43,256 nt of DNA, taken from the IMG/VR virus record IMGVR_UViG_3300037484_000800, positions 1-43,256 of that record. The stretch is one strand, 5' to 3'. Below are positions 1-43,256 of the stretch, piece after piece. A program made the translations under genes and the position numbers. This DNA comes from a virus. Lineage: Duplodnaviria; Caudoviricetes. The notes beneath the pieces are model-generated. The model was not told the DNA's origin. It saw nothing but the letters and a program-made list of their open reading frames with translations, and did not search any database. Each line of letters starts with the position of its first letter. Position 1 is the first letter of the stretch.

Positions 1-225
1 GCCCCTGGATGTATCAAAGCCGTGAATACTTTTTTATGTTGGCCAATCTGGATGGATTTGTCGACCATCCAAAACACGGAGTTTGTGGACTGGAAATAAA
101 GACCGCAAGTCCATTTATGGCTAAAAAATGGGACGATGATAATGTCCCTGACAACTACTATGCACAGGTGCAACACTATATGGCGGTGATGGGATTCCAA
201 AGATTTTTTATTCCGGTACTAATCG
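1..225. repeat. Terminal direct repeat (circular assembly overlap), copy 1
   Basis: 1-225 matches 43032-43256 except A126 vs G43157; the YqaJ ORF reads in frame across the join. Confidence 0.95.
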
Positions 226-3775: not shown

Positions 3776-3783
3776 TTTAAAAT

Positions 3784-3854
3784 TGTGTGGTCGTCTAATG
3801 GTAGGACACAAGCCTTCGAAGCTTGGCATGGAGGTTCAAATCCTCTCCGTACAA
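3784..3854 (+). tRNA. tRNA with TCG (Arg) anticodon and Gln-like body
   Basis: Cloverleaf: TGTGTGG/CCGTACA acceptor, GTC/GAC D-stem, CAAGC-CTTCGAA-GCTTG anticodon arm, GGAGG-TTCAAAT-CCTCT T-arm; no encoded CCA. Confidence 0.8.
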
Positions 3855-4188
3855 TCACCGCCCCGTATGGGGATGGTATTTTATATCTATTTTCCTATTC
3901 CTGCAAGCTGTTTAAAAACAGCACGCTTAGTAATGCCTGCGTTAAGGCTATATTGTTCTAAAAACTTTGCGGGAAAAATGTATTGAAGGTTTTTTTTGAG
4001 TACCTTCATGGTCTTTTATTTTAGGCTGCCAGCGTCAGGCAGACCATCGATGGAAATTAAATTAAGCGCGGACATCGGCGCATAATTTGACGCTGTACTA
4101 ATAATACTTGTGCCGGGTAGTAGTAATTTGCTTCCCGGCAATTAAAAAACGTGTCATTAAAAAAACGCTAAATTGATAGGAGTTTTAA

Positions 4189-5199: not shown

Positions 5200-5587
5200 A
5201 AAAGATTTTATAGCTAATTTAATTAATTTTTATTATCCTCTTTCTCCTTTTGTCGCTACGGTATTTGCTGATTATTTAATATCAAAAAAGTTTTCAGAGC
5301 GCGATTATGACAAGCTTTTTAAATGGCTTACAAATAATTTTTCCAGGAAATGGAAAATAACTCCGACTAATACAGAAATCGAAGAGGCTGAAAAAGCAAT
5401 CAAAGAGTTTGCTGATAAAATCGGCAATCGTAAAGATGCCTTGGATTATGGCAGAAAGCCATTTGCGCTAATTACCGAGCAGGAACCTGATATGAAAGAT
5501 TTCAGCAAAGAGATTGATGATGCTTTTGAAAAATTAAAGAAAAAGCTAGGCATGAAAAAGCAAAAAAGGGAGGAAACCCATGAATAA
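5192..5587 (+). CDS. Hypothetical protein (possible helicase loader by position)
   Basis: Coupled directly downstream of the initiator. Confidence 0.6.
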   Translation: MIRKDFIANLINFYYPLSPFVATVFADYLISKKFSERDYDKLFKWLTNNFSRKWKITPTNTEIEEAEKAIKEFADKIGNRKDALDYGRKPFALITEQEPDMKDFSKEIDDAFEKLKKKLGMKKQKREETHE

Positions 5588-6374
5588 CAAAACAAAAAAG
5601 CCGGATGTAGATGAAAAGCGTGTGCTGCGCGGCGGCAGTTGGGGCGGCAACGCCAGGGACGTGCGTTCGGCTAGCCGGGTCGGGTACGGGTCGTCCGGCC
5701 GTGGCGCCTACACCGGTTTCCGACTGGCTATCAATTTTAAAGAAGGAGATTTGAAAATGACAAGAAAAACTGTCAAAGTTAACAATGTGGAATTCAGTTT
5801 TATCTGGATTGAACCAGGTGAGTTTATGATGGGCTCGCCAGAAGACGAGTCTGGAAGATGGAGTGATGAACTCCAACATAAAGTAGTTCTGACTAAGGGC
5901 TACTGGATGGCAGAGACAGCTTGCACTCAAGAGCTGTGGCAGGCGGTGATGGGAAAAAATCTAAGTCATTTTAAGGGTGAGCAGTTACCAGTAGAGAATG
6001 TAAGCTGGTATGATTGTAAAGAATTCATCGAGAAGCTTAACAAGTTGGTACCTGGATTAGATGCACGGCTACCGACAGAAGCGGAATGGGAGTATGCCTG
6101 CCGGGCTGGTACGAAAACGCCCTTTAGCTTCGGAGAGATCATCACCACTGACCAGGTGAATTACGACGGGAATTATCCATATGCCGACGAGAAAAAGGGA
6201 GCATACAGGGCAAAGACTGTGGAAGTGAAGTCTCTCCCGCCCAATCCGTGGGGGTTATACGAGATGCATGGGAATGTGTGGGAATGGTGCGAGGATATTT
6301 ACGGGGACTATCTATATCCATCCGGTACAGTGACTGATCCCGGTAGCCAAGATTCGAACAGGGGCGAAATATAA
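5580..6374 (+). CDS. Circularly permuted FGE-sulfatase/CLec-fold protein: VR-like cassette 1 fused in front of a scaffold lacking its C-terminal VR; internal start at 5757
   Basis: RVLRGGSW...GFRL at the N-terminus, then GEFMMGS, PVENVSW, RLPTEAEWEYACRAG, PNPWGLYEMHGNVWEWC; stop before the usual RGGSW; AGGAGA SD before ATG 5757. Confidence 0.9.
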   Translation: MNNKTKKPDVDEKRVLRGGSWGGNARDVRSASRVGYGSSGRGAYTGFRLAINFKEGDLKMTRKTVKVNNVEFSFIWIEPGEFMMGSPEDESGRWSDELQHKVVLTKGYWMAETACTQELWQAVMGKNLSHFKGEQLPVENVSWYDCKEFIEKLNKLVPGLDARLPTEAEWEYACRAGTKTPFSFGEIITTDQVNYDGNYPYADEKKGAYRAKTVEVKSLPPNPWGLYEMHGNVWEWCEDIYGDYLYPSGTVTDPGSQDSNRGEI

Positions 6375-6571
6375 TGATGGAGGAGAGAGAATGTTTTAAT
6401 AACCAGATCATTGCCGCGCTGCACACGCAGCGCGGCGGCTGTTGGGGCGACAACGCCAGGGACGTGCGTTCGGCTAGCCGGGTCGGGTTCGTGCAGTCCG
6501 GCCGTTTCGGCATCACCGGCTTCCGTCTGGTAAGTGGAGCAGACAAAAGTGAGGAGTTAACCCATGAGTGA
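6374..6571 (+). CDS. VR-like cassette 2 mini-protein
   Basis: QRGGCWGDNARDVRSASR...GFRLV; TAATG coupling to the scaffold. Confidence 0.8.
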   Translation: MMEERECFNNQIIAALHTQRGGCWGDNARDVRSASRVGFVQSGRFGITGFRLVSGADKSEELTHE

Positions 6572-7046
6572 TGAAACAAGAAAGCCTGATGCAGGCGTGA
6601 GGCATGTGCGGCGCGGCGGCAGTTGGAACAACTTCGCCTTGAACGTGCGTTCGGCTAGCCGGGTCGGGTACAAGCCGTCCAGCCGTGGCGCCAACACCGG
6701 CTTCCGACTGGTGAGTGGAGCAGATAATAAATTACTAACTGACTACAATAATGCTTTGCAAGCATTATATGACCATGTAGGATTTGTTGAGGATTGGGTA
6801 GTCTGTCCTATTGATGATAAGACAGACTATTATTGGCAAATAGAAAAAAATATTGTTAAATATGCTAAAACTAAAAAAGAATTACAAAACGAAGTCAATA
6901 ATTATTATGAAGATGAAATCTATAGACAATGTTTTTATAAACAACATATTTATAGAGGCAAAGACATGACAATGATTTTTGTTGACACCCATGTTGATGA
7001 AATGAAATATTTTGCTTTTTATGACAATAAAAAAGAAAAGAAGTGA
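6564..7046 (+). CDS. VR-like cassette 3 fused to an unrelated ~105-aa AT-rich domain
   Basis: RGGSWNNFALNVRSASR...GFRLV followed by an abrupt composition change. Confidence 0.8.
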   Translation: MSDETRKPDAGVRHVRRGGSWNNFALNVRSASRVGYKPSSRGANTGFRLVSGADNKLLTDYNNALQALYDHVGFVEDWVVCPIDDKTDYYWQIEKNIVKYAKTKKELQNEVNNYYEDEIYRQCFYKQHIYRGKDMTMIFVDTHVDEMKYFAFYDNKKEKK

Positions 7047-7121
7047 TAATATAATGGTTGTTATAATTCTTGCTAGATGCATTATTTTATGGTGGACAGG
7101 GAGAAAGTGAGGAGGCAACCC

Positions 7122-7310
7122 GTGAGTGATGAAACAAGAAAGCCGGATGTAGATGAAAAGCGTGTGCGGCGCGGCGGCAGTTGGAGCGTCATCGCCAGGA
7201 ACGTGCGTTCGGCTTTCCGGGTCGGGTACGGGTCGTCCAACCGTTACGCCAACACCGGCTTCCGCTTGGTGAGCGGAGCAGACAAAAGTGAGGAGGCAAC
7301 CCATGAGTGA
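7122..7310 (+). CDS. VR-like cassette 4 mini-protein
   Basis: GAGGAGG SD plus GTG 7122; RGGSWSVIARNVRSAFR. Confidence 0.8.
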   Translation: MSDETRKPDVDEKRVRRGGSWSVIARNVRSAFRVGYGSSNRYANTGFRLVSGADKSEEATHE

Positions 7311-7491
7311 TGAAACAAAGAAGCCTGATGTAGATGCAATCCGTGTGCAGCGCGGCGGCAGTTGGTTCAGCTTCGCCTGGAACGTGCGTTCGGCTAACCG
7401 GGTCGGGTACGTGCCGTCCGGCCGTGACTCCTACACCGGCTTCCGACTGGTGAGTGGAGCAGACAAAAGTGAGGAGGCAACCTGTGAATAA
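7303..7491 (+). CDS. VR-like cassette 5 mini-protein
   Basis: GAGGAGG SD plus ATG 7303; RGGSWFSFAWNVRSANR. Confidence 0.8.
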   Translation: MSDETKKPDVDAIRVQRGGSWFSFAWNVRSANRVGYVPSGRDSYTGFRLVSGADKSEEATCE

Positions 7492-7669
7492 CGAAACAAA
7501 GAAGCCGGATGGCGAGAAGCGCGTGCTACGCGGTGGCTGTTGGTACGGCGACGCCAGGAACGTCCGCTCGGCGAACCGGAACTGGTACGAGCTGGGCTAC
7601 CGCTACGACTCCATTGGCTTCCGCTTGGTGAGCGGAGCAGACAAAAGTGAGGAGGCAACCTGTGAATAA
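7484..7669 (+). CDS. VR-like cassette 6 mini-protein (divergent codon backbone)
   Basis: GAGGAGG SD plus GTG 7484; RGGCWYGDARNVRSANRNW. Confidence 0.8.
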   Translation: MNNETKKPDGEKRVLRGGCWYGDARNVRSANRNWYELGYRYDSIGFRLVSGADKSEEATCE

Positions 7670-7862
7670 CGAAACAAAGAAGCCGGATGCAGACGTGGTG
7701 CGTGTGCTGCGCGGCGGCAGTTGGAACTATAACGCCTGGTACGTGCGTTCGGCTGACCGGGTCAGGTTCGAGCCGTCCAGCCGTAACGCCAACACCGGTT
7801 TCCGACTGGTGAGTGGAGCAGACCTGAATCGTGTGCAGCGCTGTGGCATAAAGGAGTGTTAA
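7662..7862 (+). CDS. VR-like cassette 7 mini-protein
   Basis: GAGGAGG SD plus GTG 7662; RGGSWNYNAWYVRSADR. Confidence 0.8.
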   Translation: MNNETKKPDADVVRVLRGGSWNYNAWYVRSADRVRFEPSSRNANTGFRLVSGADLNRVQRCGIKEC

Positions 7863-10084: not shown

Positions 10085-10282
10085 ATGACAAAAGCAGAAG
10101 AACTAAATTTACGAGAAACTAATAAGCAGTTAGTCGAGGAGATAATGAGGAAAATCGTGAATAACAAAACAAAAAAATTGTATATAGCTACAAGCAAAAT
10201 AGTACGCGGTGGCAGTTGGCACTACAACGCCTGGGATTTATTATTGCCACAGGTCAGCATCAGGAAGAATAGTGGAAGGTGA
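10085..10282 (+). CDS. Hypothetical protein containing a truncated eighth VR-like cassette
   Basis: VNNKTKK...VRGGSWHYNAWD. Confidence 0.6.
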   Translation: MTKAEELNLRETNKQLVEEIMRKIVNNKTKKLYIATSKIVRGGSWHYNAWDLLLPQVSIRKNSGR

Positions 10283-40952: not shown

Positions 40953-41011
40953 TAATGTTTGTCCTGGCAGGGTTTCCTATTTTTTCTCCTTTACTCTGCC
41001 AGGTTTTAAAT

Positions 41012-41091
41012 GGCCGCATGGTGCAGGTGGATGCATACCGCTATATGTACAAGGGATAGCGGAGACCCTGGTTCAAGTCCGGGTGCGGCCA
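41012..41091 (+). tRNA. tRNA-like gene with enlarged anticodon arm (identity unassignable)
   Basis: GGCCGCA/TGCGGCC acceptor, GTGC/GCAT D-stem, CCTGG-TTCAAGT-CCGGG T-arm; 7-bp stem with 11-nt loop. Confidence 0.75.
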
Positions 41092-41167
41092 ATAAGAGAT
41101 TTTTGCTTTTTCGGTTTCCGTTAATCTCCATCAAAAAAAACGCAAACCGGTAATTAAAAAAAATGTG

Positions 41168-41371: not shown

Positions 41372-41566
41372 ATGGAAAACGAAAAAAAACCGATCGACAT
41401 TACTTTGATACGGACACTATTAATCTGGCAGGCTATGCGCGGGAATGAGCGGGCACGTGGAGAAATAACGTTAGGTGATCTTGATGGATTAAGCCATTCA
41501 GACACATTTACGGAATTTATTCAGGAAAATTGGGACGAATTAGTTAGTCGGGGGGAACAGACATGA
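41372..41566 (+). CDS. Hypothetical protein
   Basis: AGGAGG SD. Confidence 0.65.
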   Translation: MENEKKPIDITLIRTLLIWQAMRGNERARGEITLGDLDGLSHSDTFTEFIQENWDELVSRGEQT

Positions 41567-42426
41567 GAAAATACACACCAGCAGAATTAAAAACGATTTT
41601 AGAGATCCACAAAAAATGGCTTAACCATGAACTGGGAAGTTCGCATGCCGACCTGACCAGAGCCGACCTGACCGGCGCCGACCTGACCGGCGCCGACCTG
41701 ACCAGAGCCAACCTGACCGGCGCCGACCTGACCGACGCCTACCTGACCAGAGCCAACCTGACCAGAGCCGACCTGACCGACGCCGACCTGACCGGCGCCG
41801 ACCTGACCAGAGCCAACCTGACCAGAGCCAACCTGACCGGCGCCGACCTGACCGACGCCAACCTGACCAGAGCCAACCTGACCGGCGCCTACCTGACCGA
41901 CGCCGACCTGACCGACGCCGACCTGACCAGAGCCGACCTGACCGACGCCAACCTGACCGGCGCCGACCTGACCGACGCCAACCTGACCAGAGCCAACCTG
42001 ACCGGCGCCTACCTGACCGACGCCAACCTGACCAGAGCCAACCTGACCGACGCCAGAGGATTGGTGAAAACAATGGGTGTAACTCCTGGAAATTACTACT
42101 GGAAAAGATTTGAAAAGGAATTAATTAATAGGGGTTATCAATTTTATGTTGGCATTAACGAATTGAGAAAAAATGAAATATTTGCCGAAAATCCTATCGT
42201 TACATGTTCATATCCTGGTTTTCATTTTGCTAGTAGATCTTGGTGTGCAGTGAATTATCCACATTATCCATATGAGGCGTTAATCCAGATACCGATAGAT
42301 GCAAAAATCAATGAACCATGGGCGACGGACGGAAAAGCCAGTGCTGACAAAATAATCATAATCCAGGTGTTTGATACAGCTAGCGGCGAAGATGTTACAC
42401 AAAATTTTATCAAAAAAAATAACTAA
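41563..42426 (+). CDS. Pentapeptide-repeat protein with C-terminal domain
   Basis: 27 x A[D/N/Y]LT[R/G/D]. Confidence 0.9.
   Translation: MRKYTPAELKTILEIHKKWLNHELGSSHADLTRADLTGADLTGADLTRANLTGADLTDAYLTRANLTRADLTDADLTGADLTRANLTRANLTGADLTDANLTRANLTGAYLTDADLTDADLTRADLTDANLTGADLTDANLTRANLTGAYLTDANLTRANLTDARGLVKTMGVTPGNYYWKRFEKELINRGYQFYVGINELRKNEIFAENPIVTCSYPGFHFASRSWCAVNYPHYPYEALIQIPIDAKINEPWATDGKASADKIIIIQVFDTASGEDVTQNFIKKNN
41647..42051 (+). repeat. 15-bp coding tandem repeat x27
   Basis: GCC-[G/A/T]AC-CTG-ACC-[AGA/GGC/GAC]. Confidence 0.95.
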
Positions 42427-42734: not shown

Positions 42735-43256
42735 ATGAGACTAAAAATATAACACCCTATATGGTTATAGGTGATAACCTTAACGAGGATAATGACGAAA
42801 CTTGGCGAGCGCTACGCCGTCTAGGAATTGGCGGATCAGATGCAGGAGCACTTCTTAACTACAATAAATATAAATCTGCATTAAATGTTTATGCCGAAAA
42901 GCTAAATTTGGTTCCGACTATTGAAGAAAATGACGCTATGAAACACGGGAAGCGCATGGAACCGATATTAAGAAATGAATTTCCATCTATCTACAAAAAA
43001 CGGACCGGTATAGATATTGAAGTGTCGGAAAGCCCCTGGATGTATCAAAGCCGTGAATACTTTTTTATGTTGGCCAATCTGGATGGATTTGTCGACCATC
43101 CAAAACACGGAGTTTGTGGACTGGAAATAAAGACCGCAAGTCCATTTATGGCTAAAGAATGGGACGATGATAATGTCCCTGACAACTACTATGCACAGGT
43201 GCAACACTATATGGCGGTGATGGGATTCCAAAGATTTTTTATTCCGGTACTAATCG
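42731..43256 (+). CDS. YqaJ-like recombinase, 5' part (continues through the join to 686)
   Basis: W...RRLGIGGSDAGALL..NKYKSALNVYAEK motif; open to the window end. Confidence 0.9.
   Translation, partial: MNETKNITPYMVIGDNLNEDNDETWRALRRLGIGGSDAGALLNYNKYKSALNVYAEKLNLVPTIEENDAMKHGKRMEPILRNEFPSIYKKRTGIDIEVSESPWMYQSREYFFMLANLDGFVDHPKHGVCGLEIKTASPFMAKEWDDDNVPDNYYAQVQHYMAVMGFQRFFIPVLI
43032..43256. repeat. Terminal direct repeat, copy 2
   Basis: Matches 1-225 with one mismatch. Confidence 0.95.

Follow-up and report, generated by a model that had tools for sequence, protein, structure and literature searches.

Layout of the locus

The locus lies on the forward strand of the window, i.e. the whole stretch of 43,256 nucleotides analysed here, and comprises one FGE-type CLec body and seven units with the motif RGG[S/C]W...GFRL (Table 1). 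A preliminary description had reported seven cassettes, each bearing the motif of a variable region (VR), and all seven were located in the window by that motif; a DNA pattern of three VRs gives two matches in the window compared with none in 100 shuffles. The RGG[S/C]W...GFRL frame of the motif stands as first written, whereas the spacing between the arginines is x7 rather than x6 and the leading R-V-x-R fails in cassettes 2 and 3. The count of seven separately translated cassettes was too high: since the frame of cassette 1 continues into the body and cassette 3 runs on into another domain, there are five free-peptide ORFs (cassettes 2 and 4–7) and two fusions. The preliminary description did not include the truncated eighth copy, the VR-start remnant at 7830-7848 or the adenine signature treated below.

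Table 1 Coordinates of the cassettes, the scaffold and the truncated eighth copy
Feature	Coordinates	Strand	ORF (aa)	Motif	VR core	Start signals and remarks
Cassette 1 + FGE body	5580..6374	+	264	5628	5628-5726	GGAGG SD
VR-less scaffold	5757..6374	+	205			Internal ATG, AAGGAG 8 nt upstream
Cassette 2	6374..6571	+	65	6431		TAATG start on scaffold stop, without SD
Cassette 3	6564..7046	+	160	6612	6612-6710	AGGAG SD
Cassette 4	7122..7310	+	62	7170	7170-7268	AGGAGG and GTG
Cassette 5	7303..7491	+	62	7351	7351-7449	AGGAGG and ATG over preceding stop
Cassette 6	7484..7669	+	61	7529	7529-7627	
Cassette 7	7662..7862	+	66	7710	7710-7808	
Eighth copy, truncated	10157..10282	+		10205		Leader and RGGSW half, then unrelated sequence

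The tandem arrangement of cassettes 4–7 was found as described, with periods of 181, 181 and 178 bases and a one-base frame shift per unit. Each of these four cassettes is preceded by AGGAGG, and the starts of cassettes 5–7 overlap the preceding stop, the overlap reading ATGAGTGA or GTGAATAA. An SD is thus present for six of the seven cassettes, the remaining one being cassette 2, which starts on the stop of the body. The start of the 264-aa ORF likewise overlaps the stop of the upstream gene, and the scaffold would be translated from the internal ATG at 5757. All seven VR cores are equal in length, free of stops and have a start codon ahead of them, and the only indel in the aligned leaders is one of 3 nt. 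A leader sequence is common to cassettes 1 and 4. Cassette 3 is fused in frame to an AT-rich domain of 105 aa that matches phrog_24232, to which no function is assigned. Irregular parts are also present: the 5' end of cassette 2 contains a fold-back of the VR start (6413-6439), and the tail of cassette 7 holds a remnant of another VR start (7830-7848). This remnant and the truncated eighth copy represent decay, which counts against the reading preferred below, in which the cassettes complete a scaffold in trans.

The record is metagenomic, and an assembly chimera of population variants of a single VR would also produce a row of similar units. The public run X1, a sediment metagenome that contains short pieces identical to the window and may be its source sample, yielded a 217-nt contig that is identical to 7523-7739 and links cassette 6 to cassette 7, the sole junction bridged independently. 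Furthermore, the units differ in leaders, tails and backbone, unique sequence interrupts the array, and arrays of this type occur in 14 viral records and nine metagenome loci. A chimera is consequently very improbable, and the observed layout is confirmed as real rather than an artefact.

Genome context

The ends of the window (1-225 and 43032-43256) are identical over 225 nt, so the window corresponds to a complete circular phage genome, though the record is classed as linear. The genome, with a GC content of 38%, encodes a P22-like portal, a terminase, a capsid protein, an integrase and a repressor; judged from the portal, terminase, integrase and repressor, the phage is temperate and podovirus-like. 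The cassette locus comes after the replication initiator in a rightward run of recombination and replication genes, the recombination genes lying at 9-1921, and the virion genes are on the opposite strand. The early-operon placement claimed at the outset is borne out by this position among replication and recombination genes, distant from those of the virion. A close relative of the phage was looked for and none was found; a probable related phage is represented by a 43,348-base contig encoding an integrase (P0242) 50% identical to that of the window.

Some further features of the genome were recorded. A pentapeptide-repeat protein with a DUF7666-like tail is encoded in the early region at 41563-42426, where the GC fraction is 0.51 in a genome of 0.38. 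Genes for tRNA-Arg(TCG) and tRNA-Thr(TGT) are located at 3783-3856 and 41011-41092; CGA is present in the GFR motif of four of the seven cassettes.

The FGE/CLec body and the split point

The Pfam FGE-sulfatase profile is divided between the body, which matches positions 5-197 of 255, and the separate cassette ORFs, five of six of which match 204/206-254; cassette 2 has no FGE-sulfatase match at E<=0.01. In alignment with intact homologues the body ends one to two residues before RVLRGG, in agreement with the earlier statement that it stops where the motif should begin. In the 264-aa ORF, residues 12-50 match TvpA 253-291 and residues 63-243 match TvpA 21-235. The division of the profile and the TvpA match uphold the assignment of the cassettes as VRs of FGE-type CLec DGR targets, both fold and sequence matching that type, and by this order of matches the 264-aa ORF is a circular permutation of a TvpA-type FGE/CLec protein. 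The intact homologues closest to the body are about 60-70% identical to it and, where named, are mostly cellular FGE proteins; the GC content of the body is 47%. No conserved cysteines are found across the seven cassettes where the catalytic Cys pair of FGE would sit, and a catalytic formylglycine-generating enzyme, whose catalytic triad is described in the available text of PMC6328139, was ruled out because the VR-equivalent segment is without this pair.

In the CLec structures described in the portions available of two reports (PMC6328139, PMC5006420), loops (insert 3) lie between β2 and β3, the binding site is located between β3 and β5, and β5 pairs with β1. Given this strand order, with the split falling in the loop, the body alone would be without core strands. 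In an alignment-based model of the permuted ORF, residues 41-50, which hold the GFR strand, have a pLDDT of 83 with a strand at 45-47; residues 1-30, the RGGSW half, have a pLDDT of 41-48, docking of the whole tip onto the body thus being conjectural.

Source of the variation

Across the cores of cassettes 1–5 and 7, 30 of 99 columns are variable, 27 of them at codon positions 1-2. A search of 185,579 species genomes for template-like patterns led to one DGR, in a Desulfobulbaceae MAG (L175). This DGR is complete, with a caspase-like/FGE target, HRDC, RT and template, the domain names having been assigned partly by eye. Its template, with 28 adenines in 99 bases, was used as an independent adenine map: its adenines coincide with 23 of the 30 variable columns (Fisher p=6.5e-12), and with 26 of 41 when all seven cassettes are included (p=3e-11). 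The bases at the AAx positions of the cassettes are A53, G41, T33 and C5; for the RT of the Bordetella phage (bRT) C is likewise the rarest change, but T exceeds G, in the available text of PMC7826257. The Desulfobulbaceae template is the nearest one found, yet it differs from the cassettes at 13-16 non-adenine positions, by which it was ruled out as the donor, and the exact cassette backbone was not found in the genomes or metagenome contigs searched. The cores of the six cassettes other than 6 differ among themselves at 11-19 of 99 bases, whereas that of cassette 6 is 27-32 bases away from them and likely derives from a second template, i.e. two templates in all.

The phage itself contains none of the machinery sought. 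No RVT_1 match for an RT was found in the complete genome or among the 49 ORFs of a scan with Pfam and PHROG (outside the locus, ORFs of at least 90 aa), and these ORFs also gave no Pfam or PHROG match to an Avd or HRDC gene. All copies of RGG[SCAG][WF] in the six frames belong to the eight cassettes, all of them mutated, and no template repeat was present among them. A complete DGR cassette was therefore ruled out, the phage being without RT, template and accessory gene. A standard remote DGR target was likewise ruled out, as the VRs are N-terminal or stand alone instead of closing a complete CLec gene at its 3' end, but in its mutational signature the locus behaves like such a target. The VR cores have a GC content of 64-74%, rising to 79-91% at third positions. 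Because of the adenine signature, the foreign GC and the lack of an RT or an unmutated copy in the phage, the most likely source of the diversity is a DGR that the phage does not carry, acting via direct retrohoming or through the capture of host VRs; this was likely the DGR of the phage's host.

As regards the IMH and downstream hairpin of a remote DGR target, the GFRL end of the cassettes is constant, and a hairpin over it is significant in cassette 6 only (z -3.6), being weak or absent in the other six. In addition, three linked synonymous changes at the 3' ends of the VRs (7257-7279 and equivalents) separate cassettes 4 and 6 from cassettes 3, 5 and 7; these changes preserve a small hairpin whose register is shifted and which is significant only in cassette 6.

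Recurrence in other phages and metagenomes

A two-VR tandem DNA pattern returned 44 and 22 viral loci, from which chance matches, VR–template pairs and pairs of whole genes were dropped. VR-only arrays were present in 14 other viral records (G001-G011, G019-G021), nine of which contain an FGE body, so that the related layout sought was found in unrelated phages; G021 has a partial FGE match at its contig end. An RT is absent from all 14 records, three of them 100% complete and four others (G002, G006, G007 and G008) 10-72% complete. The stretches fetched hold from two to about 15 VR units per record, one match in G003 being spurious. In all nine array groups examined, C is the last base of 57-80% of the hypervariable codons and the rarest one at their first or second position.

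Among nine array-associated bodies that were checked (eight viral and one metagenomic), the frame stops 6-31 residues past the EW motif in seven, and the bodies of G020 and G022 likewise stop shortly after it. The bodies of G011 and L185 differ in that the frame runs through out-of-frame cassettes to a final in-frame VR. A VR ORF starts on the stop of the body in G003 and G009 too, and the frequency of SDs in other phages is modest (7/15 cassettes in G009, 4/10 in G005 and 5/16 in G003). A three-VR pattern gave 11 metagenome loci, nine of which are arrays, one repeating G010. In five of these arrays (L185, L187, L189, L191 and L193) a start lies within 30 codons in 6 of 26 cassettes and an SD in none of the 26. 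In these five and in L121 the VR units are mostly start-less and in one frame with stops between them, and the frame of the body in L185 and in L121 continues across out-of-frame VR units and closes with a VR that is in frame. Arrays of the L185/L121 type are likely a variant based on recombination or frameshifting, and some of the related arrays without start codons look like recombination donors.

These arrays bear on an alternative in which the 264-aa permutant is the working protein and the other cassettes are a stored library that is gene-converted into the cassette-1 slot, the copying running through the shared leader and backbone and perhaps performed by the RecE/Sak4-like recombination genes of the phage. 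Seven of the nine bodies checked have a VR in frame upstream, and G001 has a single ORF that comprises four VRs, a short linker and the body; the working form may for this reason be a permuted protein of one chain. The leader common to cassettes 1 and 4, the start-less arrays, the recombination genes at 9-1921 and the mosaic structure of the units (67 of 105 pairs of non-A sites are incompatible) also favour a stored library. However, silent donors have no need of an SD or a coupled start, G004, G010 and G019 have a degenerate upstream VR, an in-frame Met precedes the body in six of the seven permuted ORFs listed (the exception being G001), and the bodies of G003, G020 and P0045 have no upstream VR. 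A stored library is considered unlikely as the main explanation. Of the two mechanisms offered in the preliminary description, complementation in trans and recombination donors, both stand as candidates, the latter fitting the mosaicism and the start-less arrays elsewhere.

Evolution of the split bodies

The VR-less bodies of G010 and G004 have a dN/dS of 0.086, and those of G003 and G020 a dN/dS of 0.195 (176 codons in each case), which shows that VR-less bodies are under purifying selection in relatives. On a tree of 62 bodies with several long branches, 11 of which were labelled split (L042 not among them), the split state requires eight changes, at least six of them forced, and a single clade of split bodies is rejected (p-AU 4e-5). 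The simplest reading is that the split layout arose repeatedly, and reversions could add changes. The body of the window is surrounded by intact FGE proteins, most of them cellular, and lies close to P0045, which is a free body of 221 aa without a VR on a 41.7-kb contig; this grouping has a support of 88/92 with a long branch.

The array could also be decaying neutral debris, left by duplication of a VR through slippage and misintegrated DGR cDNA once an FGE gene had broken. Such debris would account for the fold-back of cassette 2, the 7830 remnant and the truncated eighth copy, and the independent origins could stem from a mutational bias of retrohoming. Seven stop-free VR cores of equal length with starts and a single 3-nt leader indel argue against it, as does the occurrence of the layout in nine other records, and the selection on VR-less bodies (dN/dS 0.09-0.20) had already weakened it. 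Neutral decay is distinctly improbable.

Proposed mechanism

The reading preferred here, in which a host DGR writes exchangeable tips that complete one CLec scaffold in trans, is given an even chance of being correct. Host DGR cDNA from two templates would home into the cassettes during the prophage state or replication; alternatively, already-mutated host VRs would be copied into them by recombination. In the early operon, translation from the internal start would then yield the scaffold and translational coupling the peptides, each of which would supply β3 to β5, complete the fold and give a different binding site. The cassette-1 fusion would be the same scaffold–tip complex in one chain. 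More speculatively, the targets of the assembled binders might be host proteins, with CLec-tipped defence sensors or the ligands of these sensors as the most plausible candidates, and the intracellular role of the binders would be directed against defence. The recurrence of split bodies, the split point, the coupled starts with SDs and the adenine signature count for this trans-completed scaffold; the mosaicism, the start-less arrays elsewhere and the modest SD frequency in other phages count against it.

A different target is envisaged if the peptides or their DNA act on the host system itself, by swapping into or poisoning host CLec sensors or by soaking up DGR cDNA, with the scaffold as a chaperone. 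The cellular nature of most named homologues, a ratio of peptide genes to scaffold of up to about 15:1 and the proposal of CLec domains as hypervariable defence sensors in the available text of PMC10907252 and PMC7159879 would suit such an activity. Poisoning has no need of diverse tips, however, and a conserved scaffold accompanies nine of the 14 array records. This explanation is improbable.

For the trans-completed scaffold, the wider proposition is that unrelated phages repeatedly evolved a two-chain, antibody-like binder, in which a constant scaffold is combined with a translated tip library, hypermutated via the immune DGR of the host, that counters host CLec defences; this is advanced tentatively and is doubtful as a whole. 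A VR-less scaffold with VR-only cassettes but no DGR, its tips most likely DGR-written, is a recurring phage architecture that on the simplest reading evolved repeatedly and that has a likely mechanism.

Normally, a DGR provides each gene copy with a single binding site. If the proposed reading is true, splitting the fold provides many specificities at once per phage, at 180 bases each and without a mutator, and represents a case of a virus using host hypermutation machinery across genomes. The hypothesis that the CLec targets of cells serve to sense phages would also be supported indirectly, and a system in which to test it would be at hand. Moreover, a natural split CLec scaffold with exchangeable tips of 60 residues would be a compact platform for binder display, and its small parts lend themselves readily to work in vitro.

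Comparison with known systems

Variant cassettes beside one expressed frame are known from Neisseria pilS/pilE and Borrelia vls, where the units are mosaic and the cassettes have no starts. The window shares the row of cassettes and the mosaic units with these systems and differs from them in its SDs and coupled starts and in the RT adenine signature of its variation; cassettes without translation starts are found in other arrays and not in the window.

TvpA of Treponema denticola (PDB 2y3c), an FGE-type CLec DGR target, is one chain with one C-terminal VR and a DGR in the same genome, whereas the window has seven VR copies, placed N-terminally or on genes of their own, and neither RT nor template. 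Remote targets in cyanobacteria and Treponema, as described in the parts available of PMC7517822 and PMC5758913, are whole CLec genes with the VR near the 3' end, rewritten by a non-adjacent DGR in the same genome, avd, TR and RT working in trans; those of the window would be VR-only genes in a genome other than that of the DGR. The CLec/FGS sensors of conflict systems have the same domain family and mutational signature, and a cytosolic, non-virion role is proposed for them in the available text of PMC10907252 and PMC7159879; however, they are cellular, full-length and fused to NTPase, vWA or effector domains, whereas the window's proteins are viral, split and without an effector.

Searches of literature that was mostly outside subscription turned up no account of a VR-less scaffold accompanied by arrays of VR-only genes. 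The available part of PMC5758913 reports a tandem cassette of eight targets, three VRs in N-terminal position and 44 aa as the size of the smallest target, and mentions no VR-less scaffold; its supplements list the 44-residue target and the three N-terminal VRs, which may bear on novelty.

Other arrangements of VR units

One cassette of the G002 array (L085:3840) is unmutated and template-like (NNNPRNCRSAYRNHNE...), in a record without RT. In the viral contig L017, whole FGE genes occur nine times in tandem, and every one of them has a VR of its own. Finally, proteins of 85-98 aa that consist of two different VRs and nothing more were found (P0125-P0131, P0134, P0142 and P0146), most of them with a short linker resembling the cassette 7 tail and those of the P0129 type with longer linkers.
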